64,000 nucleotides of DNA from a virus (lineage: Duplodnaviria; Heunggongvirae; Uroviricota; Caudoviricetes). Shown here piece by piece: positions 26,165-46,329 of this stretch. Below the pieces are notes generated by a model. It had not been told where the DNA came from and searched no databases. It saw nothing but the letters and a program-made list of their open reading frames with translations. The translations under genes were made by a program, and so were the position numbers. Each line of letters opens with the position of its first letter. The first letter of the stretch is position 1. The stretch lies in IMG/VR virus record IMGVR_UViG_2574180019_000006; one strand, written 5' to 3'.

Positions 26165-26171
26165 CAAGGGA

Positions 26172-29100
26172 ATGTCACAAAACGTAGAGTTTATCCTGTC
26201 GCTGGAAGACAAACAGTTTACAGCGTCAATCGATCGTGCGGGGAAACTGCTTACTCGATTTGGTGAGCAGGTAACAAAGCCTGCTCAAAAAATCCAAACC
26301 TTTGAACGCTCTTTGGGTTCGGTCGCCCGTATCATTGGCGTTCTGGAAAGCAAGCTCGATTCTACGGCAGATAAACTACAGGATGTAGCTGCCGGTTTTG
26401 AGCTTGCTTCAGATGCTACGCGTAAAATGCGTGGCAACATCACCAGCCTCAATTCTGGTCTTAAAGCCCTGATTGAGCGCGTCGATACGACAACTTCTTC
26501 AGTAGATAAACTCACCGCGTCATTACGTAAAGTGCAATCAGAGCTAAATGATTTCTCTGATTGGGCGACCTATGCAAGCAAAAGCGCAAGCCGCTTTGGT
26601 ACGGAGGTCAAAGAAGCCTCTGCGTCCGTGAGTGGCATGAATACGCGCCTTAATACCACGACGAAGCGACTCAGTAATTGGGGTGTCACAACGAGTCAGG
26701 CTGCCGAGGGACTGAAAAAGGTTCGTGAGCAGATGGACGAAGTTATCGGACGTCAGCAACTGATTAGCAAGCCGGTACGCGTTCGTACATCTGGAAGTGG
26801 CGATGGTGGTAGCGGGCGGCGTAGCGGCGCTTCTGGCCATAGCGGTAAAAGTAACGAAGGAGGTATGTTCTCTGGCCTTCGTGGCAACATTTTCCTGCTT
26901 GGCGAGATCGGAGATGCAGCCAGAACGGTTACTGACATCATGTTTGGGTGGCAGAAGCCTATTGTTGAAGCTGCGGCCGAAATGGAACGTATGCGGGTGA
27001 TGCTTCGAGGGTTGAATAAGGAGAAGTCCAACCCTGGCCAGGCTGCCGCCGATGACATGAAGTACATCGTAGACATGGCTCAAAATGCGCCGTTCGCGAT
27101 GCAGGCGTTAACAGATTCCTTCGTGAAGTTTCGTTCTGCTGGCTTAGATCCAACCGATGGTTCTCTGAAGGCGCTGGTGGACTCCGTTGCTCGTTTTGGT
27201 GGTGATAGTGAGCTGTTGAAACGTGCGGCTGTGGCCGTTCAGCAGATGTCCGGTAAGGGCGTTGTGTCAATGGAAGAGCTACGTCAGCAATTAGGTGAAG
27301 CCGTTCCTAACGCGATGCAGGCAATGGCAGACGCCGCAGGCATCACTATGGGGGAACTGACTAAAGCCGTTGCCAGCGGTACGGTTGAGGCAAAACAGGC
27401 GTTGTCTCTGATGTTTGTTGGTCTGCGTGCGGAGAATGAGAACGCAGCGAAAGACATGATGCAAACCTACACAGGTGCGCTGGCGCAACTTCAGACGTCA
27501 TTCACGTTATTTGCTGATCGGGTTGGTCAGGCCGGATATCTGGATTCTCTATCGAAGGGGATGAAAGAACTGGCTTCAATCATGAATAGCGCCGAAGGGA
27601 TTTCGTTTGCCAATTCTTTAGGTTCGGGGTTAACAACGGCAATCGATGGGTTGCGTCAGCTTGCTCAATGGTTAGCAAAGAACCAAGAGCTGGTAATTAA
27701 TCTCGGTAAGATCGTGGCCGCGATGGTTGCGTTCAAACTGATGCGAGCAGGGATCATGGGGGTAGTTGGCGCTGGGAGCCAGATGGTTAGCACCTTTGCC
27801 ACGATGGCGACCGCCATACAGACTCCATTTAACCTCGGCGCTACAGCAGTAACTCGATTCAATCGTGCGGCACGTATGGGGCTGGCTCCGATCCCCTCTC
27901 TTATTTTCGCCATCCGTGGGGCGATTACGGGGCTTAAAGGCGCTTTTGCTGGATTAACGGCGTTCATTGCAGCAAACCCTATAGGGGCAGCATTTACAGT
28001 TGCCACAGTAGCTGTTGCTGGCCTAATCACGTACATGACCATGCTCCGCAGCGAAACTTCAAAGGTCGTTGACGAGATTAGGAAAATACCAGAGGCGATG
28101 ACGGCGGCCAAACGTGCACAGATGGCGGAGTATAAAGCGCGTCTTGAGCAACAAATCACGCAAAAGGAACAAGAGTTAAAATCTGGCGAAAAGGTGGTTT
28201 ATGGGCCGGGTATGGCCGGAACTACAGTAAAGATTAATCAGGATGAACGTAAGCGTATAGAAAATGAGCTAAATGACCTTCGTAAGAAACGCGATAAAAC
28301 TACTGGGGCAATTGAACGCGGAGACATTGCCGTAGCCAAACGTCTTGCAAAAGATGCGGCAGAATCACAGATAGAGAAAATACGGGAAGAGAATAGAGAC
28401 TTTGCGGCAACATTCGCTAAAGCTCGTCAAGAGGCTCTGGAGAAGATCCAAAAAATCAATGATGACGATTCACTTTCTGATGACGAAAAGAACAAGCTAT
28501 TGGCACCGTTACGTGAAACGGTAAACAAAAGCTATCTGGAGCCTGCGCAAAAACTGGTTGATTCACTTTCTTCTCGTAAGAATGCGACCGAGAAGCAAAT
28601 TGCGACTCTTAATGATCAGCTTGAAAAAGCCAAAAAGGATGGAAATACCGAGCAGATCCAGAAACTGCAAGGCAGTATTCGTGGTTATCAGGAGCATTTG
28701 GAAGCCGTTGCTCAGGAGCTGACTCAGGCAGAGTTCGAGAGAGATAACGCGGCCAAAACTGGTAAGGGCGTAATGTCAAACCAGGGGACTGTTCTTGGGT
28801 TAGGTACAACTGATAAAGCTGCTCAGAAGGCGTTGGCGCAATATATGCGAAACCAGATGGATTCTGCGACTTATCAGCGTACTTTGCCTGACGGCACTCC
28901 GATGATGGACTTCGAAGGTAAGCCGATTATTGGGCCTAAACAACTCAAGACGCAGCTTAATTTGCAGAAAGCATCCAGTGCCAGCTCTCTGGAGAAAATG
29001 AGCGATGAAGAGCGTGCCGCAGCCATTGCTGCACTGACTAAAGCTCGTGAACAGGATGCAGCAGCTGCCGAGAAAGCAGCCCAACGATCAGCTAACGCCT

Positions 29101-30749
29101 CGCAGCGTGCGGCCAAGAAGGAACAGGCAGCGCAACAGAAACTGGCAGCCGGATACCAGAAGGCTCTGGACAAAGCCGATCAGCTTATGGGGCAAATGGG
29201 TGAAAGCTCTAAGGCTACGGTATCGTTTGATCAGTCTCTTCGTGATACAACGAAATCGCTGACAGATTTGGCTAATGCGGTTCCTAACGAGTTCATCACT
29301 CAAGAGATGATCGACAAGGCGAAAAAACGTCTTGAAGACCTCAAAAATGCGACACCTGAATATCGCGAGATGTTTAATCGCCGCAATGTTGAGCAGATGA
29401 TCTCCACTTGGGCACCGGAGGCGGATTCCATTATTAGTGCTGGCTATACGCCGTCTCGCGAAGAGAAAGTTGCTGATTTCGAAGACACCTACAACCGCAA
29501 TCTCAAAGCGTTGATAGAACTTCGTGATAAGGCGTCTGATCCTAAAGTTGTGGCGCTTTATACAAAGAAAATCAATCAACTGATTGCTGCTGGCAATACC
29601 GCGCTTATTAAAGAGACGGGGACTGCGACGCAGAAGTTGGCACTGGAATACGAAAACCTGGCAGAGCAGATCGAAAGCACCTGGACTGATTTGTTTAGTG
29701 GCTTAACTGATGTCCTGACTGATTTCGTTATTAACGGGAAGATGAGCTTCTCCAGCCTATCTCAGTCCATTTTGAAAGATATCACCAATATGGTCGTGAA
29801 GTCGCAGATCACGCTGCCTCTAATGAACATGTTGGGGATGGGAACCACCGCAGCTGGTAGTTCACAGAGTGGTAATTTGCTGACCGGGGTTGCTTCCGCC
29901 GTTGCCAATCAAGGGGTACGAATGGGCAACACTGTTAACGGCGACAAGTCGGTAGGAGAAGCCACGAAGGAGACGTCCAGTTCGGTAACTGGATTGGGGC
30001 AAACAACACAGCAGACCACCAGCGCAATTGGCACAGCAACAAATGCGATTGGTAGCTGGGTATCGGGGCTATTTGATAGCACCGAAGCCAAAGATGCTGA
30101 GACAAAAGCCGTGAAGGACTCCATCTTCTCGATGCAGAACCTCAGCTCTGTTACCGGCGCGCTGTCTGCCGCGTTTGCAATGCTTGGAGCTAATGCTTCC
30201 GGCTCTGGTAATAAGTGGTTGAGTTTTGGAGCAACGGTTGCATCTGGTCTTGTTTCAGCTTGGGCTGGCGGTGGATTCGATGGATTGATGTCCGGTTCTT
30301 CTGGCTCAACTTCCGGGTTCAACAATCTGACCAGTTCTGCTGCCGATGGCACGAATGGTATTCCTGCAATTCCGAAGTTTGCAAATGGTGGCATATTCGG
30401 AAAAGACGGCGTGATCCCGCTCCGGGCATACCAGAAAGGCGGTATTGCTAACTCGCCTCAATTAGCGTTGTTTGGGGAAGGTTCTATGAATGAGGCGTAT
30501 GTTCCATTGCCTGATGGCCGAACAATCCCTGTAACGCTCAGTACCGATGGTATGAGTGGAGGCGGAAATGTTCTTTCTCCTGTATCAATTGAGATCAACG
30601 TCCATAGTGACGGTAGCACGACAGAATCCGGCGATACAGAAAGCATATGGAACAATGCCGCTCAACGGATGAAAGCAATCGCGCTTGAGACTATCGCTCA
30701 AGAGAAACGCCCTGGCGGATCACTCAACCCAAACACTCAACGTAACTAA
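26172..30749 (+). CDS. tail tape measure protein
   Basis: About 1525 aa, long helical Ala/Gln/Lys-rich regions; ATG at 26172 with AAGGGA RBS. Confidence 0.9.
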   Translation: MSQNVEFILSLEDKQFTASIDRAGKLLTRFGEQVTKPAQKIQTFERSLGSVARIIGVLESKLDSTADKLQDVAAGFELASDATRKMRGNITSLNSGLKALIERVDTTTSSVDKLTASLRKVQSELNDFSDWATYASKSASRFGTEVKEASASVSGMNTRLNTTTKRLSNWGVTTSQAAEGLKKVREQMDEVIGRQQLISKPVRVRTSGSGDGGSGRRSGASGHSGKSNEGGMFSGLRGNIFLLGEIGDAARTVTDIMFGWQKPIVEAAAEMERMRVMLRGLNKEKSNPGQAAADDMKYIVDMAQNAPFAMQALTDSFVKFRSAGLDPTDGSLKALVDSVARFGGDSELLKRAAVAVQQMSGKGVVSMEELRQQLGEAVPNAMQAMADAAGITMGELTKAVASGTVEAKQALSLMFVGLRAENENAAKDMMQTYTGALAQLQTSFTLFADRVGQAGYLDSLSKGMKELASIMNSAEGISFANSLGSGLTTAIDGLRQLAQWLAKNQELVINLGKIVAAMVAFKLMRAGIMGVVGAGSQMVSTFATMATAIQTPFNLGATAVTRFNRAARMGLAPIPSLIFAIRGAITGLKGAFAGLTAFIAANPIGAAFTVATVAVAGLITYMTMLRSETSKVVDEIRKIPEAMTAAKRAQMAEYKARLEQQITQKEQELKSGEKVVYGPGMAGTTVKINQDERKRIENELNDLRKKRDKTTGAIERGDIAVAKRLAKDAAESQIEKIREENRDFAATFAKARQEALEKIQKINDDDSLSDDEKNKLLAPLRETVNKSYLEPAQKLVDSLSSRKNATEKQIATLNDQLEKAKKDGNTEQIQKLQGSIRGYQEHLEAVAQELTQAEFERDNAAKTGKGVMSNQGTVLGLGTTDKAAQKALAQYMRNQMDSATYQRTLPDGTPMMDFEGKPIIGPKQLKTQLNLQKASSASSLEKMSDEERAAAIAALTKAREQDAAAAEKAAQRSANASQRAAKKEQAAQQKLAAGYQKALDKADQLMGQMGESSKATVSFDQSLRDTTKSLTDLANAVPNEFITQEMIDKAKKRLEDLKNATPEYREMFNRRNVEQMISTWAPEADSIISAGYTPSREEKVADFEDTYNRNLKALIELRDKASDPKVVALYTKKINQLIAAGNTALIKETGTATQKLALEYENLAEQIESTWTDLFSGLTDVLTDFVINGKMSFSSLSQSILKDITNMVVKSQITLPLMNMLGMGTTAAGSSQSGNLLTGVASAVANQGVRMGNTVNGDKSVGEATKETSSSVTGLGQTTQQTTSAIGTATNAIGSWVSGLFDSTEAKDAETKAVKDSIFSMQNLSSVTGALSAAFAMLGANASGSGNKWLSFGATVASGLVSAWAGGGFDGLMSGSSGSTSGFNNLTSSAADGTNGIPAIPKFANGGIFGKDGVIPLRAYQKGGIANSPQLALFGEGSMNEAYVPLPDGRTIPVTLSTDGMSGGGNVLSPVSIEINVHSDGSTTESGDTESIWNNAAQRMKAIALETIAQEKRPGGSLNPNTQRN

Positions 30750-30791
30750 CTATCGACTGCCCCGACCGGGGCGGTCTCACAAGGATGTGAG

Positions 30792-31127
30792 ATGGAAAGA
30801 CAAACGTTTAATTGGTATCCAGATTACGAATCTGAAAAGAGCGTAAAACCGAATGTAACGGTACTTAATTTTGGTGATGACTACGAGCAGCGACAGGCTC
30901 AAGGTCTTAATCGTATTAAAGAAGAATGGTCGTTAACCTTTACCAGATCATACAACGAAATTAATGCAATCGATGACTTCCTGACTGAGCGAGCAGGCGT
31001 TGAGTCGTTCTATTGGGTTAATCCAAGAGGAAAACGGATTGTAGTTGTATGTGACAGTCATACGGTCAAGCGATATCAGGGGTACTGTGTCTTAACTGCT
31101 ACATTCAGACAAGTATTTGAGGCTTAA
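30792..31127 (+). CDS. minor tail protein (lambda M-like)
   Basis: 111 aa, immediately after the tape measure. Confidence 0.6.
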   Translation: MERQTFNWYPDYESEKSVKPNVTVLNFGDDYEQRQAQGLNRIKEEWSLTFTRSYNEINAIDDFLTERAGVESFYWVNPRGKRIVVVCDSHTVKRYQGYCVLTATFRQVFEA

Positions 31128-31176
31128 GCATCTGGATAAGTAAGTACTAATTTACTATCATTGTGGCGTTGACAGG

Positions 31177-31908
31177 ATGTTAGCGCCTACTTATTTCAAG
31201 GATGAAACAATGGGAATTAAAGCTGATATTCAGAGCTTATCTCCCTCTGCACTCATTGAGTTGTTCGTACTGGATATGTCGAACACAACTTCAGGGGGGA
31301 AGCTATTCTTCCACGCCGGAACAAACGAACTGATGCAACCGGTCGTCTGGCAAGGAGTGACATACGAGCCGTGGCCAATCAAAGCATCAGGCTTTGACAA
31401 AACTGGCCAGGGAACGTTGCCACGTCCAAAAATTCAGGTATCGAACTTTGCCGGAACCGTCTCTGCGGAAGTTCAGGCGAACGACGATCTTGTTGGCTGC
31501 CGCATTATTCGCAAGATGACGCTGGCTCGCTTCCTCGATGCCGTTAATTTTAAAGACGGTAATCCAACAGCAGATCCAAACCAACATTTCCCGGATGAAA
31601 TGTGGTTTATCGAACAGAAAACGCTCGAAACTCATCAGGTTGTCGAGTTTGAGTTGTCCAGTGTGTTCGATTTGATGGGGGTGCAACTGCCGTATCGTCA
31701 GATCATTAAAAACACCTGCCCGTGGAAATACCGAGGGCCAGAATGCGGCTATACCGGTCCATATTTCGACAAAAATAACCAGCAGACGTCTATGTCTGGT
31801 GCTGATTACTGCACAAAACGTTATGACGCCTGTAATGCGCGTCGGAATTATTTTGCCAACGGAGTGATCCATTTTGGCGGGTTTATTGGAGCTACGCGAT
31901 ATGGGTAA
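31177..31908 (+). CDS. minor tail protein (lambda L-like)
   Basis: C-terminal cysteine cluster (CPWKYRGPECGY...C...C), as in the lambda L Fe-S motif. Confidence 0.65.
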   Translation: MLAPTYFKDETMGIKADIQSLSPSALIELFVLDMSNTTSGGKLFFHAGTNELMQPVVWQGVTYEPWPIKASGFDKTGQGTLPRPKIQVSNFAGTVSAEVQANDDLVGCRIIRKMTLARFLDAVNFKDGNPTADPNQHFPDEMWFIEQKTLETHQVVEFELSSVFDLMGVQLPYRQIIKNTCPWKYRGPECGYTGPYFDKNNQQTSMSGADYCTKRYDACNARRNYFANGVIHFGGFIGATRYG

Positions 31909-32698
31909 TAAAGCAATCCCTGAGCTTGGCTCTGATGTTATGCAGCAAATCTATCTCTGCGCCATAAATCGCTACCCTAATGAAGCGTGTGGCTTTCTGG
32001 TGAGAACTAATGGCGACAAATATCGCTTTATGGAAGCGCGAAATGTTTCGGAGAACCCGCAGAACACTTTTGTAATGCACGTTGACGACATTATGGCGGC
32101 AGAGGATGCGGGTGATGTTATCGCAATCTGGCATTCACATACTGATGAATCAGCAGAAGCATCTGATGCCGATCGTGCAGGCTGTGAAGCGACGGAAGTT
32201 CCGTGGATGATTCTGGCTATTCGCAAGAATGTTGAGGGAGATGCCCCTTTCCATTTTAGCGAGATGAATGTGATCACACCTGATGGTTTCGAAATGCCAT
32301 ACCTGGGTAGACCGTATGTATTTGGCGTATTCGATTGCTGGATGTTGTGTCGGGACTATTTGAAGCGTGAGTTTAACGTCGAACTGAACCCGAACGCACA
32401 CCTGCATATTCCATCGTGGTACACCGGCGATAACGACATTCTCGACCAGAACTACCGAAACGAAGGATTGGTACGGCTTGCGCCTGGAACAGAACCTCAA
32501 CGTGGGGACGTCTTCTTTATCCAATACGGAAAAATGCCTGACCACTGTGCGGTTTATATCGGCGATGGAATGATTCTTCATCACCAGATCGACCGCCTTA
32601 GTTGTCGTGCTTATTACGGCGGGATGTATCAGAAACATACGACGCATCACTTGCGTCACAGAGACTTGCTCAAGGGAGATGAGACGTGTCTGAGTTAG
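31901..32698 (+). CDS. tail assembly protein (lambda K-like; MPN/JAB plus NlpC/P60 domains)
   Basis: JAMM-like HSHTDES...S..D and NlpC/P60-like Cys (FDCW) and His; ATG at 31901. Confidence 0.7.
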   Translation: MGNKAIPELGSDVMQQIYLCAINRYPNEACGFLVRTNGDKYRFMEARNVSENPQNTFVMHVDDIMAAEDAGDVIAIWHSHTDESAEASDADRAGCEATEVPWMILAIRKNVEGDAPFHFSEMNVITPDGFEMPYLGRPYVFGVFDCWMLCRDYLKREFNVELNPNAHLHIPSWYTGDNDILDQNYRNEGLVRLAPGTEPQRGDVFFIQYGKMPDHCAVYIGDGMILHHQIDRLSCRAYYGGMYQKHTTHHLRHRDLLKGDETCLS

Positions 32699-33279
32699 TT
32701 CATGTGCAGCTTGGCGGCCCTATGGCCAAACATTTTGGCCGCCACTGGCATCTAAAGGTGCGCAATACAAAACAGGCTCTGGATTTAATTGAGGCCAACA
32801 AGCCTGGGTTTAAAGCATGGATGAAGCGCAACATCAAAACCTATGACAGATACCACATCCAGATCACCAATAAACAGGGCCACAAGTGGTCTGTGGACGA
32901 GAGTGAATATCAGATGATGGGGCAGTCTGACAACATAGCCAAAATCCGCATTACCCCTGTTCCGCGAGGAAGCGGCGGTTCTGCTTTTGGGTGGTTTCAG
33001 ACGGTAGTAGGAGCCGCTTTGTTGGTTGTATCGGCGGTAATGATGCCCGCTCTTGCGCCTCTCGGTTTGTCACTGATGATGGGCGGTATAGCGCAAATCA
33101 TATCTCCGCAAGCCACTAACGAAAGTGTGAGGCAGGCGGATAACTCGAACTCTTATTACTTTGATGGACCTCAAAACACAACAAACCAGGGGAACCCTGT
33201 ACAGCTTATCTATGGCGAGGAAATTTTAGTTGGCTCACAGGTCGTGAGTTCTTCTATCACCATCGACCAGCTTATGTAA
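32686..33279 (+). CDS. tail assembly protein (lambda I-like)
   Basis: C-terminal hydrophobic segment; position between K and J homologues. Confidence 0.65.
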   Translation: MSELVHVQLGGPMAKHFGRHWHLKVRNTKQALDLIEANKPGFKAWMKRNIKTYDRYHIQITNKQGHKWSVDESEYQMMGQSDNIAKIRITPVPRGSGGSAFGWFQTVVGAALLVVSAVMMPALAPLGLSLMMGGIAQIISPQATNESVRQADNSNSYYFDGPQNTTNQGNPVQLIYGEEILVGSQVVSSSITIDQLM

Positions 33280-33296
33280 TCAAGGATTTTTTGGAC

Positions 33297-36200
33297 ATGG
33301 AACAGTTCAAGAAGAAAAAATTACCGCTTCTTATTGCCGGTGCTGGAGGCAAGAAAAGTAAAAGCTCCAGCCGTACCCCGGTTGAAGCTGATGATACTGT
33401 CAATTCTCGTGCTATGGCAGCCATCCTCGACCTTCTTGGCGAGGGGGTTATCGGTGGCCTGGTAAATGGCGCAAAGTCGATCTTCATCGACGATTTACCG
33501 ATCTTGAATGAAGATGGCTCTTCCAACTTCAGCGGTATTACATGGGATTTTCGTGACGGCTCACAAGACCAGACGCCAATGGCTGGTTTTGATTTTGTCG
33601 AAACGCCTAAGTCCGTAAATATTCAGCTTAAAAAAACACACGACGTTACGGTTTCAATCGATAACGATGAAGCTGATCGCGTTCGTGTCATCATGAAATT
33701 CCCCTCTTTACGTAGCGTTGATAAAAGCTCTGGCGATACAAATGGCACTACGGTGAAGTACAAATTCCAGATCGCCAACGGAGACGCAACATTTTCTGAT
33801 GTAGTGGCAGAAGGTGAGAAAAGCGTTGATATCACGCTAACGGCAAAGAAAACCGGCGTGTATTACCGTAGCTATGAGCTGAAACTGCCTAAACCTGGCC
33901 GTGCATACAAGGTTCGGGTGATTCGTCTTACGGATGATAACAGTAGCCAGTACCTCTACAACGATACCTGGGTTGATTCCATCGGTGAGATTGTAGATAC
34001 CCCCATGAACTACCCTAACTCTGCACTTGTTGGCTTAAAGGTCAATTCAGAGCAGTTTGGTAGCACAATGCCTTCCCGTTCGTATTTGGTGCGCGGTATC
34101 AAAATTCGAGTGCCGTCAAACTACAACGAATACACCAATACTTATGTCGGCGTATGGGACGGTACTTTTAAGCTGTTGTCTTCTTCAAACCCTGCGTGGA
34201 TTCTCTACGATTTGCTTACCAATACTCGGTATGGTCTTGGGCAATTTGTGTCGGAATCCATGATTGACCTCGGCCAGCTCTACCAGATTGGTCGATATTG
34301 TGACGAAGAGGTCGATGATGGCTTTGGGGGTAAAGAGAAACGCTTTGCAATCAATACGCAGATCACCAGTCGACAAGACGCATACCGATTAATTCAGGAT
34401 ATTGCCGGTGCATTCCGCGGCATGGTGTTTTGGGCTGGTGGCATGGTTAACATCATGCAGGATAGCCCATCAGATCCGGTAATGATGTTTACCAACTCCA
34501 ACGTCAAAGATGGACTGTTTACCTATAAAGGTTCTGCGCGTAAAGATCGCCCATCCGTTGCGCTCGTAACCTACAACAACAAGGAGGACGGTTATAAGCA
34601 AAACATCGAGTACGTTGAAGATCAGGACGCAATGCGCCGTTATGGTGAGCGTAAAACAGAAGTCGTAGCATTTGGATGTACAAGCCGAGGCCAGGCTCAC
34701 CGAGTTGGTTTGTGGCTTTTGTATACCGCCAGAATGGAGTCGGATGTAATTACATTTACTGCCGGCTTAGACGCCTCATTTCTGATGCCCGGTGAAACCG
34801 TTCTGATTCAGAACAAATATCGTGCAGGTAAACGTAACTCCGGTCGAATTGTGGAGTTTACCAAAAACAGCATCACTCTCGATGCGCCTGTGTCGTTAGC
34901 TAAAAGCGGCAGCTTTATTCGGATATTGAATCAGGAAGGCAAAATCGTTGAACGCGATGTTCTTGAAACTGGCGAAAACATAACAAAGGTTACGTTTTCA
35001 AAAGCCCTGTCGTCAGCGGAAACGCCTGTTTTGAACGGTGTCTGGACAATTACAGAACCAGATCTCGAACCTATGCGCGTTCGCATCGTTAACATCGCAC
35101 AGGGGGAAACGTCGGGTAGCTTTGACATCACCGCTGTTGAGAACAATCCGTCTAAATATGAGGCAATCGACAATGGTGCAACGCTGATCCCGCAGAATAC
35201 GACGGTATTGGACCCAACTTACTCCAAGCCATCTAATCTGCAAATCACTGAAGGGACTTATCTCTCAAGCCCGGGCAACCTGTCAGTAAAACTGACTGCA
35301 ACATGGGAAGGGAAATCTCCAGAGTATTGGATCAGTTGGCGACGTTCTGATGAAAACAATGTATCGAACTGGCAATCGGCGCGTGTAACCGAAGAGCAAT
35401 ACGAAATCGTTAATGTCGCGGAGAATGGACGCTACGACTTCCAGCTGTATGCGGTTTCATTCAACGGTAAAAAAACAGAGATTATCAGTACCGTTTATCA
35501 GGTGTTGGGCACAATGACACCGCCTGATGCCCCAACGTCATTAACGGCCGTTGGAGACTATCGTAATGTGATACTGAATTGGGTTAATCCAGATTCGGTA
35601 GACCTTGATCACATTAATGTTTACGCATCCCAGACCAACAATCTGGATACGGCGAAACTGATCGCAGAGTCTGCAAGCACCACCTTTACACATGCTGGTC
35701 TTGGGGATAGCGAAACGTGGTATTACTGGGTTCGAGCATCGAACAAGCGAGGTATGTTAAGTCCTCCGAACTCAAACTTGGGTACAGAGGCGACAACTCG
35801 CGATGTACTGTCGTTCCTGACTGGCAAAATTACATCTTCCGAGCTTGGTCAGGCTCTGCTTGAAGACATCAACAGCAAAGTCTCTCAAGAAGCAGTTGAC
35901 GAGTTAAATGAGCATATCAACCAGAGCGTCGAATCTTTAGAGGGGGCGGTAAACGACGTTAAGGAAGATATAGCTGAATTAGATAAGCAGTTCAGCGATA
36001 ACCTCGCGGGTTTTGAAATAAAATTCAACGAGCGTAGCGATGCTTTGGAGAACGCACAAACCGAGCTTAAAGGTGAGGTTTCGGCAACGATTGACAAGGT
36101 CAATGAAGCGTTTGAAAAAATTGATGCTACTGATGCTGCAATTGTTGAAATCGAAAACACCGTATCTGAACACGATAAAGCTCTCGCTAATACAGTCGAG

Positions 36201-38021
36201 GCAATAAAGGCTGCAAGAGATGAAGCGGCGGCTCTTATTGCTAAGGAAAGCGAGGCTCGTGTTGAAGGCGATGCTGCAAACGCTAAACAACTGGAAGTGT
36301 TGCAGTCAACGGTAGAGGAAAGTTCCGCAGCCGTTGAAGAAATGAAAAAGACGGTTGCAGAGGTCGATCGTGCCAGTGCAGAACTGACTACGAACATTGA
36401 AGCGTTAGCTAAAACAAATATTGACCTGGCTCTTCGTCAAGATGAAGACCAGCACAAGCAGATGGTCAATAACGCGAAGATCGCAACAACACAGAAAACC
36501 TTTGCTGATGATATGTCTGCAATGGCCACGAAGGTTGAGGAAATTCGCGTAGAAATTGGCGAAGACATTAAGGCCAGTATTCTGGAAGAGTCCACCGCTC
36601 GTGCCGATGGCGATGAAGCGTTGGCAAAGCGTGTCACTCAGCTGCAATCTAAGTTTGAAGGAGATATCAGCGCGGCGATTAGTACAGAACAGGAGGCTCG
36701 TACATCTGCCGATGAAGCTTTGACGAAACAAATAACTCAGCTTGAGTCGAAAGTAAGCAACGATATTGTCGCAGCCATTAAGGAAGAGCAAGAAGCCCGA
36801 GCAACGGAAGATTCGGCTCTGGCAAGCCAGATCACCCAACTTCAGGCAAAAGTTGATGATGATATTTCTGCTGCAATACGCAGTGAGCAGGAGGCCCGAG
36901 CAAGCGGGGACTCTGCGTTAGCCAAACAAATAAACCAGCTTCAGTCAAAGGTTGACGGTGATATATCCGCTGCCATCACTCAGGAGCAGGAGGCCAGAGC
37001 AAGTGCTGACCAGGCGCTCTCACGAGAAATTAACAGCCTGCGAGCACAAACCGGAACTGATATTGCCGCAGCGGTTGCTGTAGAGACAAAAGCAAGGACT
37101 GATGCCGATAGTGCATTGTCTACCCAGATTACGTCTCTTACAGCAAAAGCTAATGATCTCAAGGCGTCTCTTGCCAGAGAAACAACGGCTCGTGCAGATG
37201 GTGATACCGCTTTAACAAAAGAGGTTTCAAGTTTAAAAGCACAGACAGCGAAAGATATTAGTGCGGCCGTTGCAGTTGAAACGCAGGCTCGAACTGATGC
37301 TGACTCGGCGTTGTCGTCTCAGATCACCAAGCTGACCTCTCAATACAAAGAGGATATTAAAGCGGCTGTAGTAACCGAAACGAAAACGCGTACAGAGCAA
37401 GATGCTGCATTGGCGACTCAAATCACAAACTTAGAGTCTCAAACGGCAGCCAACATTTCCGCGGCGGTCACAACTGAAACGACAGCGAGAACGCGGGCAG
37501 ATAATGCTCTGAGTGGGCGAATCGATACTCTGAAAGCAGAGGTGAATGGAAATACCGCGACAATTCAACAGCAGGCAACAGCTATTGCTGATACCAACAA
37601 AAAAGTGTCAACCGCGTGGACGTTGAAAATGGAGACTTCAACGAGCGGAGGGCAGAAGTATGTTGCCGGTATTGCGCTTGGTATTGACACCACTGGGCTA
37701 TCTCAGTTTTTGGTTCAGGCGGACAGGTTTGGTTTGGTCAACTCTGTTAACGGGAAGATCACAACGCCATTTGTTATCGAAAACAGTATCGCCTATATGA
37801 ATGGAGCGTATATCAAGGATGGCACAATCACCAATGCAAAAGTAGGCGATCTGCAATCTACCAATTTTGTTAGCGGTAGATCTGGATGGCGATTCGGCAA
37901 AAATGGAACGCTTGAGATCAACGGTAATAGCGGCGGCAATGGGCGATTGGTTATAAATGGTCAGCGGATTGACGTTTATGACGATAACAACGTCCTACGA
38001 GTAAGAATTGGCCGTCTGTGA
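33297..38021 (+). CDS. central tail fibre / host specificity protein (lambda J-like) with internal coiled-coil repeat insertion
   Basis: Segments recalled from lambda J (YPNSALVG..SEQFGS, AFGCTSRGQAHRVGLWL, GKITSSELG); ATG at 33297. Confidence 0.9.
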   Translation: MEQFKKKKLPLLIAGAGGKKSKSSSRTPVEADDTVNSRAMAAILDLLGEGVIGGLVNGAKSIFIDDLPILNEDGSSNFSGITWDFRDGSQDQTPMAGFDFVETPKSVNIQLKKTHDVTVSIDNDEADRVRVIMKFPSLRSVDKSSGDTNGTTVKYKFQIANGDATFSDVVAEGEKSVDITLTAKKTGVYYRSYELKLPKPGRAYKVRVIRLTDDNSSQYLYNDTWVDSIGEIVDTPMNYPNSALVGLKVNSEQFGSTMPSRSYLVRGIKIRVPSNYNEYTNTYVGVWDGTFKLLSSSNPAWILYDLLTNTRYGLGQFVSESMIDLGQLYQIGRYCDEEVDDGFGGKEKRFAINTQITSRQDAYRLIQDIAGAFRGMVFWAGGMVNIMQDSPSDPVMMFTNSNVKDGLFTYKGSARKDRPSVALVTYNNKEDGYKQNIEYVEDQDAMRRYGERKTEVVAFGCTSRGQAHRVGLWLLYTARMESDVITFTAGLDASFLMPGETVLIQNKYRAGKRNSGRIVEFTKNSITLDAPVSLAKSGSFIRILNQEGKIVERDVLETGENITKVTFSKALSSAETPVLNGVWTITEPDLEPMRVRIVNIAQGETSGSFDITAVENNPSKYEAIDNGATLIPQNTTVLDPTYSKPSNLQITEGTYLSSPGNLSVKLTATWEGKSPEYWISWRRSDENNVSNWQSARVTEEQYEIVNVAENGRYDFQLYAVSFNGKKTEIISTVYQVLGTMTPPDAPTSLTAVGDYRNVILNWVNPDSVDLDHINVYASQTNNLDTAKLIAESASTTFTHAGLGDSETWYYWVRASNKRGMLSPPNSNLGTEATTRDVLSFLTGKITSSELGQALLEDINSKVSQEAVDELNEHINQSVESLEGAVNDVKEDIAELDKQFSDNLAGFEIKFNERSDALENAQTELKGEVSATIDKVNEAFEKIDATDAAIVEIENTVSEHDKALANTVEAIKAARDEAAALIAKESEARVEGDAANAKQLEVLQSTVEESSAAVEEMKKTVAEVDRASAELTTNIEALAKTNIDLALRQDEDQHKQMVNNAKIATTQKTFADDMSAMATKVEEIRVEIGEDIKASILEESTARADGDEALAKRVTQLQSKFEGDISAAISTEQEARTSADEALTKQITQLESKVSNDIVAAIKEEQEARATEDSALASQITQLQAKVDDDISAAIRSEQEARASGDSALAKQINQLQSKVDGDISAAITQEQEARASADQALSREINSLRAQTGTDIAAAVAVETKARTDADSALSTQITSLTAKANDLKASLARETTARADGDTALTKEVSSLKAQTAKDISAAVAVETQARTDADSALSSQITKLTSQYKEDIKAAVVTETKTRTEQDAALATQITNLESQTAANISAAVTTETTARTRADNALSGRIDTLKAEVNGNTATIQQQATAIADTNKKVSTAWTLKMETSTSGGQKYVAGIALGIDTTGLSQFLVQADRFGLVNSVNGKITTPFVIENSIAYMNGAYIKDGTITNAKVGDLQSTNFVSGRSGWRFGKNGTLEINGNSGGNGRLVINGQRIDVYDDNNVLRVRIGRL

Positions 38022-38114
38022 TGGTGGAAAAAAAATTTTATATCGGTAAAAATAGGTAGGTATATACTTAATGGCGGGCAAGGATAGCCCGCCAAATCAA
38101 GGAGCATATTCAAC

Positions 38115-41100
38115 ATGTGGTACAGGGAAGGTACTATCACATTTACACAGGGCAGCAATACTCTGGTTGGGGCAGGGACAGCCTGGAACGTAACAGCTAA
38201 TGGTGTGTTGCCGGGGATGATCGTCATTGGCCCCGACAATAAGCTGTATGAGATCAAGCGCGTAACCAGTGATACGAACATTGTTCTCTCAGAACCTTAT
38301 ACCGGCGAAACTCAGTCTGAAGTTCCGTGCCGAATCATTACGACCTATGAAGGCGACTTAACACAGTTTAGCGCGCGCTTTACTGCGCTAATGTCGCGTA
38401 TGTCGGCTGATTCCAAGTCCATACGCAGTTGGTTGACTGCGCTGGATGAGGTGACAATCGAGCGTGAAGACGGTACAGAAGTGACCGTTAAGCCGCTAAT
38501 GCAGATCGTCAACGAGCACAACGAAAACGTTGAGTGGTATAAAAATAACACTGACGCGATTGATGCTGCTGGCGACAAAGCTCGTGAGGCGGCGGCCAGT
38601 GCTGCCGCAGCAGCAAAAAGCGCCAATGCCGCTGGAGAAAAAGCCTCTCAAGCGTCTCAAAGTGCATCCGCTGCGGCATCCTCACAAAGTGCCGCAAGTG
38701 CGAGTGCAACTGCTGCGAAAAAATCTGAAACGAATGCCGCAGCATCACAAAAATCTGCGGCCACTTCTGCATCCACCGCGACCACGAAAGCGTCAGAAGC
38801 TGCCACCTCAGCCCGGGATGCGTCGGCTTCAAAAGTGGCGGCAAAATCATCAGAAACGAGCGCAGCCTCGAGCGCCGGCAGTGCAGCTTCCTCGGCAACG
38901 GCGGCAGGAAATTCCGCGAAGGCCGCAAAAACGTCTGAGACGAATGCGGATAACAGCGCACAGGCGGCAGCAGACTCACAAACTGCATCGGCAAATTCCG
39001 CGACAGCAGCCAAAAAATCAGAAACCAACGCGAAAAATAGTGAGTCAGCAGCAAAGGTCAGCGAAACCAACGCTAAAGCGTCAGAGAACAAGGCGAAAGA
39101 ATATCTCGACAAGGTCGGGGGACTCGTCAGCCCGATGACGCAATACGATTGGCCCGTTGTTACTGGTAATGAGTCTTTTTACATCAAGATCGCGAAACTT
39201 TCCGATCCCGGAAGCAACAATTGCCATGTAACGCTAATGGTTACTAATGCCGGTAACTACGGCTCCACTTACGGAAACATTGACTTTATCGAGATCTCGG
39301 CGCGCGGTCTACCTTCTTCGCTTACTGCTGATAATGTATCCCGTTACCTGAGTATACGCCGTTTAGGGGCAACCGGGCTGACCGATGACAACCAGATGCG
39401 TTACGGCCTGGTTAAAGGTGATGGCTTTATTGAGGTTTGGGCCCTCCAGCGTGCATTTATCAACGGCGCAAAGGTTGCGGTACTGGCGCAGACGGCACGC
39501 ACGGAATTATACATTCCAGACGGATTTGTTAAGCAAACCGCCGCGCCTTCTGGATATGTTGAAGGCAACGTTGTAAGGATTTACGACCAGGTAAACAAGC
39601 CGACTAAAGCAGATTTGGGTCTTTCTAATGCTATGCTTACAGGCGCTTTCGGTCTTGGCGGTAGCGGGATAGCAACAACCGGCAAGATGAGCGATGTAGA
39701 GATCTTAAAAGCTCTGCGTGACAAAGGTGGTCATTTCTGGCGCGGTGATAAGCCGACCGGAAGTACGGCGACCATTTATAGCCACGGTTCTGGTATATTC
39801 TCGCGGTGCGGCGATACGTGGTCAGCGATCAATATCGACTACTCAAGCGGGAATGTTAAGGTATACGCTGGAAATGATAGAGGTCTTGACGGCGGGACTT
39901 TTAAAGTTAATCAGCTATACGGCTCGGCAAACAAGCCGTCGAAATCGGATGTTGGACTTGGCAACGTAACGAACGATGCGCAGGTAAAAAAAACCGGCGA
40001 TACAATGACCGGTGGGCTTACTTTTGCAAACGACTCAATCCTTGCCTGGATTCGGAATACTGACTGGGCGAAGATTGGATTTAAAAATGATGCCGATGGT
40101 GACACTGATTCATACATGTGGTTTGAAACAGGCGACAACGGCAATGAATATTTCAAATGGAGAAGCCGCCAGAGCACCACAACAAAAGACCTGATGAATC
40201 TTAAATGGGATGCTTTGTCTGTTCTTGTTAAAGCCCTTTTCAGCAGTGAAGTAAAAATATCGACAGTCAATGCACTGAGGATTTTTAATTCATCCTTTGG
40301 TGCTATTTTTCGCCGTTCTGAAGAAAGCCTGTATATCATCCCTACACGAGAAAATGAGGGTGAAAATGGAGATATTGGGCCATTAAGGCCATTCAACATC
40401 AACTTAAGAACAGGAGTTGTGTCTGTTGGTCATGGACTAAATGTTACTGGTGGCGTTAATGGTAGTTTGAACGGTAATGCTTCAACAGCTACGAAGTTGC
40501 AGACTGCGCGTACTATTAATGGGGTGTCGTTTGACGGTTCTAAAAACATTGAGCTAACTCCAAGGTCTATAGGAACGATCAACTCAGCAACAATGTCTTT
40601 TAGTGGTGGTGCCGGATGGTTCAAGCTGGCAACTGTAACCATGCCACAGGCCAGTTCCGTGGTTTACATAAGCCTGATTGGTGGTGCAGGGTATAACGTT
40701 GGCTCCCCGCAGCAAGCAGGCATCTCTGAGCTGGTTCTGCGTGCCGGAAATGGAAATCCAAAGGGTATTACTGGTGCATTATGGCGACGGACATCGGTTG
40801 GATTTACTAATTTTGCATGGGTGAATACATCCGGTGATACCTATGACATTTATGTAGAAATAGGTAATTACGCCACAGGTGTTAATATCCAGTGGGATTA
40901 TACAAAGGATGCAACTGTACAAATTCATACATCACCAACTTATACAGCGAATAAACCAACTGGTCTTACTGATGGAACGGTATATGTCATTTACAGTTCG
41001 CACATTAAACCGACCGCCACGGATGTCGGCGCATTACCAATAACCGGAGGAAATCTCAACGGCGGTTTAACGGCTACTGGTGAGATCATTTCAAAATCGG

Positions 41101-42473
41101 CGAATGGTCTGCGCATTGCCTACGGAAACTACGGATTCTTTATCCGAAACGATGGTTCAAACACATACTTCATGTTGACCGATTCGGGTAACAGCCTGGG
41201 AACCTATAATAGGTTAAGGCCGCTTATCATTAACAATGCCAATGGTGCTGTTACGATCGGTAATGGACTCAATGTTACTGGCGGCATCAATGGTAGTTTG
41301 AACGGTAATGCTGCAACTGCAACAAAACTGCAAACAGCACGCACAATAGGCGGCGTGTCATTCGATGGCTCCGCCAATATCAACCTGCCGGGTGTAAACA
41401 TTGCTGGTAACCAGAACACAACCGGTAATGCAGCGACAGCGACCAAGTTACAAACTGCTAGAACTATAAATGGGGTGTCGTTTGATGGTTCTAAAAATAT
41501 TGAGCTAACGGCGGAAGATTTAAATCTTGAGCAAACTGTAGAATTAGCCGCAGGAGCATTGCAGAAAAACCAGAACGGCGCAGATATACCGGGAAAAGAT
41601 ACCTTCACAAAAAATATTGGTGCATGTCGCGCTTTTCACAGTGCTATTAGTACAGGGGCAGGGAACTGGACAACGGCACAATTGATTGAATGGCTGGATT
41701 CTCAAGGGGCATTCAATCACCCATACTGGATGTGCAAATGTTCATGGTCATACGGCAATAATAAAATTATTACCGATACTGGCTGTGGAACTATTCATCT
41801 TGCAGGTTGCGTTATTGAGGTTATGGGTAATAAAGGTGCCATGACCATCCGTGTAACCACCCCGAGCACTTCCAGCGGTGGCGGAACTACTAATGCACAA
41901 TTCACTTATATTAATCATGGTGATGCTTATGCTCCTGGCTGGCGACGAGACTACAACACGAAAAACCAGCAGCCTGCATTTGCTTTAGGGAAAACAGGAG
42001 GCACTGTCGGAAATGATAAAGCTGTTGGCTGGAACTGGAATAGCGGGGTCTATAACGCAAATATTGGTGGCGCAACGACATTAATCCTCCATTTCAATAT
42101 GAGCGAGGGGAGTTGCCCTGCCGTACAGTTCCGTGTGAATTATAAGAACGGCGGTATTTTTTATCGTTCAGCACGTGATGGTTATGGCTTTGAAGCTAAC
42201 TGGTCAGAGTTTTACACCACAACACGCAAACCCTCTGCGGGAGATGTTGGTGCATATACGCAGGCAGAATGTAACTCAAGGTTTATTACAGGTATTCGCC
42301 TTGGCGGTCTGTCATCTGTTCAGACATGGAATGGTCCTGGCTGGTCTGACAGGTCAGGTTATGTCGTTACAGGTTCAGTTAACGGAAACCGTGATGAATT
42401 AATTGATACAACTCAGGCAAGGCCAATTCAGTATTGCATTAATGGAACGTGGTATAACGCGGGGAGTATTTAA
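38115..42473 (+). CDS. side tail fibre protein
   Basis: N-terminal Ala/Ser/Thr repeats (KKSETNA...), internally duplicated Ig-like segments, followed by an assembly-chaperone gene. Confidence 0.85.
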
Positions 42474-42475
42474 TT

Positions 42476-43003
42476 ATGATGCACTTAAAAAATATTACTG
42501 CTGGCAACCCTAAAACAAAAGAGCAATACCAGCTAACGAAACGATTTAACATCAAATGGCTTTATACAGAGGATGGGAAGAACTGGTATGAGGAACAAAA
42601 GAACTTTCAGCCTGATACGTTGAAAATGGTATATGACCACAACGACGTTATTATTTGTATTGAAAAGGATGTTTCAGCAATTAATCCAGAAGGCGCAAGC
42701 GTCGTTGAATTACCTGATATTACAGCAAATCGCCGGGCTGATATTTCGGGTAAATGGATGTTCAAGGACGGAGCTGTGGTTAAACGGATTTATACGGCAG
42801 ACGAGCAACAACAACAGGCCGAATCACAAAAGGCCGCGTTGCTTTCTGAAGCTGAAAGCGTTATTCAGCCACTGGAACGCGCTGTCAGGCTGAATATGGC
42901 GACGGATGAGGAGCGTACACGACTGGAGTCATGGGAACGCTACAGCGTTCTGGTCAACCGTGTGGATACAGCAAAGCCCGAATGGCCACAAAAGCCTGAA
43001 TAA
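42476..43003 (+). CDS. tail fibre assembly protein
   Basis: About 175 aa immediately downstream of the fibre gene. Confidence 0.7.
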
Positions 43004-43165
43004 AAATTAAGGCCCGCTATCGGGCCTTGTCTCATTCATCATATTCAGCAATTGACCAAAAGGGTTGAGGAGCTTGAAACGAAGTTAAATTCACCTAAAG
43101 AATAAACAACTTCAATCGGGGCTGGAGCTAAACCAGCCCCTGCTTAAAAGTATAAGGATATATTT

Positions 43166-43420
43166 ATGAGCTATGGTGCACAGGTTTGGTCGCCATCAAG
43201 ACAGGAGATGGTCAATGCGTTGGCCCCTGTTTATTACCTCGATTATTTTACTCCCTCTGGTTCAGGAAGTAGAACATATGAGGTTGAGGCGGGATTGGGA
43301 ATCGACTATTACATAATGGACGTAACCAATGGAAAATACACAAGTCTTACGGTTTCTGGAAATACCATTTCGTGGTCTGGAGCTAGTGGCAATTTAAACA
43401 TATTGGTTTTTCAAAAATAA
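43166..43420 (+). CDS. hypothetical protein
   Basis: ORF after two terminator-like hairpins. Confidence 0.45.
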   Translation: MSYGAQVWSPSRQEMVNALAPVYYLDYFTPSGSGSRTYEVEAGLGIDYYIMDVTNGKYTSLTVSGNTISWSGASGNLNILVFQK

Positions 43421-44028
43421 TGTACGGAAGCAAGATATATCGATCTGACGGGAAGGTCTGGATGTCTCCTTCTTTGTCTCCTATCGTTTTTCAGAGAAAG
43501 CAGGTTGTTTCTTTGTCTGGCGGGACAGAGTTTAACACCCAAATATCTCCAGATCGTTCACCGATGATTTTTGTTGCCTATTCGAAAGCTGTTTCATTAA
43601 TAGCCAACAGAATAGTGCGTAATAACCAGGTGATTTACAGTTTCGGAGGTCGGGGTAGCGACTCTAGTGCCACGATATACGTATTTTCGAAAGGTATAGC
43701 CAAAAAAGAAACTTGGGGCATGAGTTTTTTCAATGCACAAGGGGAGGAAATCTATAATACGGCAAATATCCCACTTTCATTTACCTTTCTTAATAATACG
43801 GAGTGGAACAGCTCTGGAGGGCATGTTTTTGATTACCCTCCAGCGATAATCCCAACATATGCGAATGTGTCCGCTGTTCCAGTACCGGGCGGAGCCATGA
43901 CAATGGTTTATGGATATGCGGCATATGGAAATACTGTTAGCTCGATATTCGTAAACCAACTTAATGGCGGCCATAGTTTTAGCGTAAATGGCAGAGTACC
44001 GGTAATAAATAGAAATCTGTATAACTGA
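43420..44028 (+). CDS. hypothetical protein (202 aa, Gly/Ser/Asn-rich)
   Basis: ORF coupled to the upstream stop. Confidence 0.5.
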   Translation: MYGSKIYRSDGKVWMSPSLSPIVFQRKQVVSLSGGTEFNTQISPDRSPMIFVAYSKAVSLIANRIVRNNQVIYSFGGRGSDSSATIYVFSKGIAKKETWGMSFFNAQGEEIYNTANIPLSFTFLNNTEWNSSGGHVFDYPPAIIPTYANVSAVPVPGGAMTMVYGYAAYGNTVSSIFVNQLNGGHSFSVNGRVPVINRNLYN

Positions 44029-44035
44029 TGAGTAA

Positions 44036-44269
44036 ATGATGAAAAGATTATTTCTAACAATAGCTGTTGTTCTCTCTCTTACTGGCTGCCAGAAATTGCC
44101 GACACCTATATGTTACGGTGAGGCTATCATTGGTGGACAGGAGACAGTCATACCCATATATGCTGTTAAAAAAGTGAACAACTATACCTTATACAAAGCG
44201 GGTAGCATCTATAACTGGCGATGGGTAGGAGTAGGTGCTTTCTCATCAGTCCGTTGCAATGCTGAATGA
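44036..44269 (+). CDS. putative lipoprotein
   Basis: Signal peptide with lipobox LTGC. Confidence 0.5.
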   Translation: MMKRLFLTIAVVLSLTGCQKLPTPICYGEAIIGGQETVIPIYAVKKVNNYTLYKAGSIYNWRWVGVGAFSSVRCNAE

Positions 44270-44350
44270 TAGGTAAGTACACACCTACAACAAAAGGGTG
44301 AAATGTGATATAAATCCGCCATCCCGATTTGACTTTTCATGGAGGAAAAC

Positions 44351-44674
44351 ATGTCGAACGAGATGGCGGGCGTTACAACAGAGCAAGTTGAGCGTATTGC
44401 CGCGATCGTTGCTCGGGAGGTTGTTGGCAAATTAGGTAAAGAGCTACGTGAAGAAATTGGCCAGGAGGTCAACGATCAGCTGAAAACCTACTTTGGTGAT
44501 ATGACCCCGGCGCAACATAGTATTCAACACTCCAACCTGGACAAACTCCTTAACCGGTTAGATTCCATCTCAAGTGGGTTCTTTGGCGGCATTGTTTCTA
44601 AAATAACGTCGTTCATTATTACCGCACTGCTTTTGGGGTTAGCCGCGTATGGCGTAAAAAATGGACTGCAATAA
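44351..44674 (+). CDS. putative holin-like membrane protein
   Basis: ATG at 44351 with GGAGGA RBS; C-terminal transmembrane segment; sits before lysis genes. Confidence 0.4.
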   Translation: MSNEMAGVTTEQVERIAAIVAREVVGKLGKELREEIGQEVNDQLKTYFGDMTPAQHSIQHSNLDKLLNRLDSISSGFFGGIVSKITSFIITALLLGLAAYGVKNGLQ

Positions 44675-44687
44675 CAGGAGATCAAGG

Positions 44688-45380
44688 ATGAAGACTCCGA
44701 GAGGTATTCGTAATAATAACCCCGGTAATCTTGATAAAGGATCACCGTGGCAAGGTCTGGTTGCGAATCCAGACGAACCGCGCTTTTGCACGTTTAAAGA
44801 CCCTGTTTGGGGGATTCGTGCACTGGCGGTGACTCTAATTACCTACCACGACAAGCGTCGCGCAAAAGACGGCTCAAGTATCGATACCATTCGTGAAGTT
44901 ATTGAACGTTGGGCACCGCCGAATGAAAACAATACTGACGCCTACATTAATGAGGTGTCTAAAGCCGTTGGTGTAACCGCAGACATGATTATCGATCTGC
45001 ATGATTACGACATTCTTCGACCTTTGGTTGAGGCAATCATTCGCCATGAGAATGGGCGAGGTCCGCTAAAAACGCTGAACACCTGGTATGCGGCAGAAGT
45101 TATTGAGGAAGGTCTGCGTCGAGCTGGCGTTGTTAAGCCGGTGAAAACCGTGAAGGCTGTTCCTGTAACTAAAGAAACCGCAGGCGCAACTGTTACAGCA
45201 GGTATTGGTCTGGCGCAGCTGGCCGATGTTATGCCGCAGGTTTCCGCTGCTATGGATAAAGCACAAGGTCATATCTCTAGCGGGGATACAGTACGCATCA
45301 TCTTCGGTATTGCCACTATTGTTGTGGCAGGATTCATTGCCTGGTCGCAGGTAAGAAAACACCAGAAAGGGATGGTCTAA
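44688..45380 (+). CDS. putative lysis protein with C-terminal membrane anchor (possible peptidoglycan hydrolase)
   Basis: ATG at 44688 with AGGAG RBS; followed by a spanin pair; enzymatic class not assignable by eye. Confidence 0.4.
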   Translation: MKTPRGIRNNNPGNLDKGSPWQGLVANPDEPRFCTFKDPVWGIRALAVTLITYHDKRRAKDGSSIDTIREVIERWAPPNENNTDAYINEVSKAVGVTADMIIDLHDYDILRPLVEAIIRHENGRGPLKTLNTWYAAEVIEEGLRRAGVVKPVKTVKAVPVTKETAGATVTAGIGLAQLADVMPQVSAAMDKAQGHISSGDTVRIIFGIATIVVAGFIAWSQVRKHQKGMV

Positions 45381-45381
45381 T

Positions 45382-45769: not shown

Positions 45770-45800
45770 TGCGAAGTTCCCCTCACTTGAGGGGAGTACA

Positions 45801-46322: not shown

Positions 46323-46329
46323 GAGTAAA

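Follow-up and report, generated by a model that had tools for sequence, protein, structure and literature searches.

A tandem array of 33-residue units in the putative helical shaft of a lambda-J-type central tail fibre from an SSU5-like phage-plasmid

Here we analyzed a 64,000-nucleotide (nt) stretch of the Caudoviricetes virus record IMGVR_UViG_2574180019_000006 (hereafter, the window), which is part of an SSU5-like phage-plasmid of Escherichia coli. The gene for its J-like central tail fibre or tail tip protein (33297..38021; 1574 residues from the ATG; hereafter, window J) contains ten tandem 33-residue units. We consider it probable, at about 0.78, that this array is a repeat-built extension of the alpha-helical shaft in a lambda-J-type central tail fibre, forming a trimeric coiled coil whose length has been changed by rare unequal recombination. 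All features described below are on the plus strand unless stated otherwise, and residue numbers are those of window J.

Results

Ten tandem 33-residue units in the J-like gene

The array covers residues 1090-1418 (36564..37550), as delimited by autocorrelation, DNA repeat families, a hidden Markov model (HMM) of the unit and an alignment of the units. The units start at 36564, 36663, 36762, 36861, 36960, 37059, 37155, 37254, 37353 and 37452; the sixth has 96 nt and encodes 32 residues, and the other nine have 99 nt and encode 33 residues each. An earlier note on this DNA, made from the sequence alone, had described about eight coiled-coil-type repeats of about 40 residues at 36570-37530. The presence of such repeats in the J-like gene was borne out by self-identity peaks in both protein and DNA, by the unit HMM and by helix prediction, and the location was nearly right, whereas self-comparison shortened the unit to 33 residues and the count rose to ten.

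The consensus of the unit is DISAAIxxExxARxxADxALxxQITxLxxKxxx, in which A4, E9, R13, D17, A19, L20 and L27 are invariant in the alignment of the ten units. When residues 1090-1418 were compared with themselves, identity peaked at offsets of 33, 66 and 99 residues, and the value at offset 33 was 0.49, as compared with a maximum of 0.19 in 500 shuffles. Each unit was matched by the unit HMM at an E-value of 1e-15 to 1e-20.

The repeats are also periodic at the DNA level, with a weak period of 99 nt. At an offset of 99 nt the DNA self-identity was 0.52, whereas 200 codon shuffles gave at most 0.36, and a DNA repeat search returned repeat families at 99-nt spacing with 60-73% identity. Tandem Repeats Finder, applied to 34000-40000, did not detect the array because the pairwise DNA identity between units is only 39-66%, and autocorrelation and the unit HMM were used for the array in its place. 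The longest exact run shared between units is 12 nt (GAGCAGGAGGCC, at 36885 and 36984). In addition, the same codon is used at only 36% of the residues that are identical between units, indicating that the synonymous sites are saturated. The units have thus diverged in DNA and share few codons; therefore, the unit duplications are old, and the motif has been held at the protein level.

Pfam has no model over residues 824-1421, and literature searches found no specific description of these repeats. Just upstream of unit 1, Tandem Repeats Finder reported a 12-nt repeat at 36540-36569 (GAAATTCGCGAA, 2.5 copies), which encodes EEIRVEIGE and looks like a trivial local duplication inside the helical region. 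The minus strand of 35885-36839 contains several antisense open reading frames (ORFs) of 100-170 residues that overlap the J shaft, for example 36405-36839; these most probably arise as artefacts of a sense strand whose codon composition is Ala/Glu/Gln-rich.

The array lies between two segments that match lambda J

Window J matches phrog_31, 'central tail fiber J', in PHROG, and the J genes of phages Cyrano and CMS-2020a share 95% identity with its gene. An in-frame TTG at 33291 precedes the ATG at 33297 (long ORF, 33291/33297-38021), and the annotated J of Cyrano starts at the same ATG. Pfam assigned the hub domains FNIII-A_GpJ (PF24801, E 1.1e-29) to residues 101-235 and Phage-tail_3 (PF13550, E 7.5e-34) to 357-520, fn3 to 744-823 and Phage_Tail_Tip (PF09327) to 1422-1556. 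The NCBIfam model lambda_TipJ spans residues 20-900 with 534 bits, below its cut-off of 1950. The ORFs preceding J (26151-33279) give the lambda-type order M-L-K-I-J after the tape measure gene, and the annotations of Cyrano, PhiR41_1 and SSU5 show the same order.

The hub and FNIII domains, residues 20-858 (33354..35870), are collinear with lambda J 3-835 (32% identity, E 7e-119 in blastp). PDB sequence matches over this span were lambda J (8IYK, E 1e-127), the F2 pyocin (25VF) and phage T1 (9L9P). On the other side of the array, residues 1419-1507 match lambda J 841-931 with 34% identity (blastp), confirming the proposal in the earlier note that the flanks track lambda J. The number of residues between the two matching blocks is 5 in lambda J and 560 in window J (residues 859-1418). 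Since the blocks flank the insert at the position of the lambda shaft, the extra 560 residues replace the short shaft of lambda.

A 1620-nt stretch of the J gene, used as a search query, was 100% identical to the plasmid NZ_JBSTRI010000003.1. Of 5426 complete E. coli genomes, 180 (~3%) carried it, always on plasmids and in no case on a chromosome.

The shaft is predicted to be a long helix

The region upstream of the array, residues 859-1089 (35871..36563), is a non-repetitive part of the shaft that is proline-free and predicted to be helical; the whole of residues 859-1418 contains 0 prolines. Within this upstream part, residues 976-1008 (36222-36320) are a degenerate unit, matched weakly by the unit HMM (13.9 bits). 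By Fourier analysis, the hydrophobic period was 3.65 in the array (33/9 = 3.67) and 3.56 in the upstream shaft, both inside the 3.5-3.67 range of coiled coils. The hydrophobic columns of the unit are 2, 4, 6, 12, 19, 20, 24, 27 and 31.

AlphaFold2 predicted one continuous helix across units 5-9, with a pLDDT (predicted local distance difference test) score of 90-97. It also predicted a helix over residues 834-1259, in which the only non-helical break is a low-confidence one at residues 1048-1066 (36438-36494; sequence RQDEDQHKQMVNNAKIATT). On this model, the break may be a hinge or kink, at a position comparable to that of the kink on which side fibres dock in the F2 pyocin. The shaft is the most diverged part of J: its amino acid identity among the window, the SCU-175 element and SSU5 is 58-69%, as compared with 89-97% for the hub and 88-100% for the prism and end module (see below). 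This distribution of divergence fits a rod that is constrained in its core pattern alone.

A beta-prism and a conserved end module follow the array

The array is followed by the Phage_Tail_Tip domain, the beta-prism 'central straight fibre' (PF09327, residues 1422-1556, 37560..37964; Pfam E 1.2e-41), which aligns to lambda J 840-971. AlphaFold2 predicted beta strands in this region, and the top Foldseek matches were the SU10 fibre (7Z4B) and the lambda central fibre (8XCI). The end of this domain overlaps a conserved end module (residues 1513-1574, 37833..38018; ending in ...LRVRIGRL), which stands in the place of the lambda receptor-binding domain (RBD). The last 62 residues of window J align to the C-termini of T1 gp33 (9L9P) and of DEV gp56 (9ZE4; 36 bits), and between the window, the SCU-175 element and SSU5 the end module keeps 97-100% identity, a conservation that suggests a conserved partner or receptor.

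The lambda-type C-terminal receptor-binding region is missing, as had been noticed from the sequence: Pfam gave no PF12421 match in window J, and the chain stops 18 residues past PF09327. What had been taken for a short unrelated tail in its place is the PF09327 prism together with an end module common to T1 gp33 and DEV gp56. By its domain content, window J belongs, together with PyoF10 and T1 gp33, to the J-family proteins of the RBD-less type and is no equivalog of lambda J.

Related fibres

In the lambda protein gpJ, as described, the hub domains are followed by two FNIII domains, then by an alpha-helical shaft and the beta-prism central straight fibre, and finally by an RBD (PMC11101478). 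In the lambda structures (8IYK, 8XCJ/8XCI), the shaft occupies the same position as that of window J, from FNIII-2 to the beta-prism, between collinear flanks that are 32-34% identical. However, the lambda shaft is short, a bundle of three helices with a few dozen residues, as compared with 560 residues in window J. Lambda J has no copy of the 33-residue unit (best unit match, -5 bits), and it carries a C-terminal Ig-like RBD, which window J lacks.

Among solved structures, the F2 pyocin protein PyoF10 is the closest homologue of the window shaft. Residues 1274-1546 of window J, comprising units 6-10 and the prism, align to PyoF10 927-1193 (E 3e-24). The lengthened shaft of PyoF10 (25VF) was found by cryo-electron microscopy to be a three-stranded coiled coil, the shaft is followed by a predicted lambda-like prism without an RBD, and the side fibres of the pyocin (PyoF13) dock on a kink in the shaft (PMC13455828). 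PyoF10 resembles window J in being a J homologue with a long shaft, then a prism and no RBD, and it has one recognisable unit just before the prism. The two differ in that the PyoF10 shaft has about 240 residues, no obvious tandem array, an insertion domain and a side-fibre-binding kink, whereas the window shaft has about 560 residues and 10 clear units.

T1 gp33 (9L9P) shares with window J the tandem 33-residue units of this motif type, the beta-prism and the C-terminal end, which reads ...LRVQIGRL in gp33; two of the gp33 units are identical copies. However, it has only about three units, and T1 is a virulent phage of the Drexlerviridae. The structure of gp33 is unresolved past residue 820, and its C-terminal 350 residues were modelled as a fibre of about 37 nm (PMC11945409). 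In Drexlerviridae, receptor-binding proteins are thought to be encoded by genes adjoining the J homologue, and in phage DEV the end of gp56 recruits two proteins encoded apart from it, gp55 and the LptD-binding protein gp54 (PMC12892993). DEV gp56 (9ZE4) has helical units resembling window units 1-3 as well as the aligning C-terminal end module; DEV is a podovirus, and its gp56 is a hub-less protein of only 429 residues. We saw no gp54 or gp55 homologue in the window and no small receptor-binding gene of the T1/DEV style beside window J, where a large side fibre gene starts 93 nt after J.

When the ten-unit profile was compared with 1.84 billion representative proteins, it matched 2041 clusters at a threshold of E <= 1e-3, of which 198 remained at E <= 1e-30, and related units were found across many host genera. 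A recount with the unit HMM on 138 newly fetched top matches gave 5 to 26 units per protein (median, 10), and four of the six top profile matches that were checked contain the PF09327 prism.

Unit number differs among relatives by whole units

Copies were counted with the HMM of the window's ten units on full J genes from phage and plasmid records; a homologue search with the C-terminal 506 residues gave mostly short, partial proteins, which are poor for copy counts. Ten units are present in the window, Cyrano, CMS-2020a (both records) and CP148383, and nine in PhiR41_1 and CP027369. There are six units in Yersinia pestis pMT1, Citrobacter CP056422, Enterobacter cloacae pG6809-1 and a Salmonella Concord plasmid, five in SSU5, a Salmonella Tennessee plasmid and E. 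coli pP59A-2, and four in Salmonella Typhi pHCM2. The largest number, 21, was found in Klebsiella pneumoniae MCJ8600983.1, a J-like protein of the same architecture. The copy number is thus not invariant among relatives, in line with the suggestion in the earlier note that it could vary, and the differences are always whole units.

The Klebsiella protein MCJ8600983.1 (2138 residues, on a 102-kb contig) has its units at its residues 1163-1851 and a different C-terminal module; its neighbouring units are up to 85% identical, indicating recent unit duplication. In pMT1, pHCM2 and three further relatives, the array (4-6 units) and the prism are kept and the ...LRVRIGRL end is swapped for longer, different C-terminal modules, and three database homologues carry the lambda-type PF12421 domain. 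From these comparisons, unit number and tip module are exchanged independently. We claim no pattern of unit number with host genus or with the C-terminal module, as the sample of 17 is too small: 9-10 units are usual in the E. coli elements, with pP59A-2 (5 units) as an exception, and both C-terminal types occur with 5-6 units.

The array is absent in two relatives, a 2201-residue Klebsiella J and a 3662-residue E. coli J. The latter giant protein, encoded on the SSU5-like plasmid NZ_CP062852.1 (record positions 35480-46468), has the same prism and ...LRVRIGRL end, and its shaft consists of carbohydrate-binding-module-like domains alternating with coiled-coil segments, instead of the 33-residue array. 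The shaft position of J looks like a hot spot for module insertion.

The shaft as a possible docking site for the side fibre

A side tail fibre gene (38115..42473; 1452 residues; Pfam Gp34_trimer; the Cyrano equivalent is annotated as a tail fibre) lies directly downstream of J. This arrangement, together with the attachment of PyoF13 to an F2 pyocin shaft that is homologous in sequence to units 6-10 and the possible hinge or kink predicted at residues 1048-1066, is what would be expected if the long shaft were mainly a docking platform for the downstream-encoded side fibres, with the units as periodic binding sites. However, the side fibre of the window has no detectable similarity to PyoF13. 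Its N-terminus instead resembles distal-tail or minor-tail proteins, if only faintly (E 0.14 for a distal tail protein; phrog_9922, 1e-4), hinting at attachment near the distal tail protein. Furthermore, the surface residues of the shaft are poorly conserved between lineages in which the N-terminus of the fibre is conserved, and the unit number ranges from 4 to 21 without any visible matching change. We therefore regard docking as an improbable main role of the shaft.

The side fibre itself is a mosaic. Its N-terminal 300 residues are common to other SSU5-like elements, residues 962-1039 form a T4 gp34-type trimerisation domain, and its length in close relatives varies (1452 residues in the window, 1341 in Cyrano and 1175 in CP148383). 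The C-terminal 334 residues match the structure of the Mu tail fibre S (8JU3, E 4e-190). In SSU5, side-fibre gp22, which binds the lipopolysaccharide (LPS) core, is the only experimentally assigned adhesin, as cited in PMC12312913.

Unit number changes rarely and by one unit at a time

Nearly all of the ~165 close E. coli relatives (>=96% identity) keep exactly 10 units. The 60 best plasmid matches and the 60 best E. coli genome matches all have the ten-unit length (1620 nt), except for three that are off by 1-2 nt, and in a spread sample of about 55 close relatives only three have nine units. These 9-unit plasmids are 96-97% identical to the window. In pPEC178_2 and 2013C-4991, units 3 and 4 are fused, and AH02 has a chimera of units 4 and 5 just downstream of the shared 12-mer. 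In a sister lineage, PhiR41_1 and the SCU-175 element differ by a clean 99-nt indel at an 11-nt homology (GCTGCTATTAA), by which unit 4 was lost, and the flanks of this indel contain one mismatch in about 500 nt. Taken together, there have been at least three independent one-unit losses, all in frame, in units 3-5 and in genes annotated as intact. Units 3-5 (36762..37058), the zone of these natural one-unit deletions, hold the 12-mer GAGCAGGAGGCC and are the zone of highest inter-unit similarity. Unit gains are visible in the two identical units of T1 gp33 and in the near-identical neighbours of MCJ8600983.1. These sequence comparisons indicate that unit number changes by unequal recombination or slippage at short homologies, a process that is real but rare and does not act as a contingency switch.

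The differences in copy number among relatives and the three independent 99-nt in-frame deletions at short inter-unit homologies might also be read as the trace of a contingency locus, that is, a slippage-prone array that changes its number often and switches host range within a population. The array is nevertheless not the slippage-prone repeat that had been envisaged. Its units are not near-identical in DNA (39-66% identity, no exact run longer than 12 nt), their synonymous sites are saturated at 36% same-codon use, and Tandem Repeats Finder is blind to them. Copy number does not change frequently among near-identical strains either, as the two sets of 60 best matches and the three 9-unit plasmids among the ~55 relatives attest. 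Moreover, unit loss or gain cannot shift the reading frame, because the unit length is a multiple of 3. A contingency locus is thus very improbable.

Other genes downstream of J

The side fibre gene is followed by a gene for a tail fibre assembly protein (42476..43003; Pfam Caudo_TAP, E 1e-37; phrog_136), two genes for small membrane proteins (43166-43420, phrog_557, and 43420-44028, phrog_425) and a homologue of the superinfection-exclusion protein Cor, a 77-residue lipoprotein (44036-44269; phrog_1119, E 2e-30). Between its fibre gene and holin, Cyrano has no counterpart of the block formed by the two membrane-protein genes and the Cor homologue. Cor is tied to phages that use FhuA. The Cor homologue may hint at FhuA as the terminal receptor, which we offer as a lead and not as evidence.

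Discussion

We propose that J trimerises and that its three chains would form a parallel coiled-coil rod, by homology to PyoF10. Each unit would supply about nine hydrophobic core positions, corresponding to roughly three 11-residue (hendecad) repeats, plus the invariant polar residues E9, R13 and D17. The rod would hold the beta-prism (PF09327) and the small end module away from the mouth of the tail tube. At about 0.15 nm per residue, a unit would measure about 5 nm and the ten-unit array about 49 nm, with at most about 80 nm for the whole shaft. The unit number would shift, in frame, by rare unequal recombination or slippage between short homologies of neighbouring units, so that related phage-plasmids would carry shafts of different lengths; that the length of the fibre changes with the unit number would follow from this geometry. 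The first host contact would be supplied by the side fibre. Since the lambda-type RBD is absent, the end module, or a partner that is encoded separately and docks on it, would probably make the terminal receptor contact.

Several points weigh against this model. The break at residues 1048-1066 could be a fold-back, which makes the 80 nm of the shaft an upper bound. AlphaFold2 has little confidence in unit 10 (pLDDT about 40), and its model is that of a monomer, onto which the parallel three-stranded geometry was carried over from the F2 pyocin homologue. In addition, the spacing of the units in the wider family is mostly 32 residues, followed by 36, 39 and 33. A composition of three hendecads is plausible for the 33-residue unit, but it is weakened as a general rule because the wider family mostly uses the 32-residue spacing; the spacings 32, 36, 39 and 33 are all sums of 7s and 11s.

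In another reading, the repeats would themselves attach to the host surface in the manner of a multivalent lectin or adhesin, and the unit number would set avidity and not length. This might be supposed from the invariance of the charged E9, R13 and D17 in every unit and from the absence of a lambda-type RBD, but it is hardly tenable. The invariant residues occupy predicted core positions or adjoin them and fit salt bridges between helices, and the homologous segment of the F2 pyocin is a plain structural coiled coil. The spread of related units over about 2000 protein clusters and many host genera speaks against a specific ligand, and the binding of the LPS core by SSU5 is assigned to the side-fibre protein gp22 (cited in PMC12312913).

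Extending the shaft model, the 33-residue unit and its 32-, 36- and 39-residue cousins might constitute a very widespread and hitherto undescribed element from which phage central fibres are built and which acts as a molecular ruler. The unit number, set by unequal recombination, would then tune the reach of the tip through O-antigen or capsule, or relative to the side fibres, and would thereby co-determine the hosts of phage-plasmids, including the relatives pMT1 of Y. pestis and pHCM2 of S. Typhi. We put this forward tentatively, as a possibility that is doubtful at present. Rods of this kind exist elsewhere: the adenovirus fibre shaft and the stalks of trimeric autotransporter adhesins are trimeric rods of short repeats, in which the repeat number varies from type to type and sets the reach of a distal binding head. 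Their folds and sequences, the adenovirus triple beta-spiral and the coiled-coil and neck motifs of the adhesins, are unrelated to the window shaft, so these are functional analogues without homology.

The shaft described here is a known kind of part, as in lambda, T1 and the F-type pyocins, in a longer and repeat-built form that evolves slowly, and it involves no new mechanism. Structural work has recently revealed extended shafts in F-type pyocins and phage T1, to which this shaft adds a clear example defined by sequence. A shaft made of roughly 5-nm units, which are naturally gained and lost with the protein intact, would also offer an engineering handle, by which the length of the fibre could be changed stepwise and its reach compared with adsorption through O-antigen or capsule. 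SSU5-like phage-plasmids, in which such shafts of different lengths would occur, are common in clinical Enterobacteriaceae and can carry resistance genes (PMC9600943).

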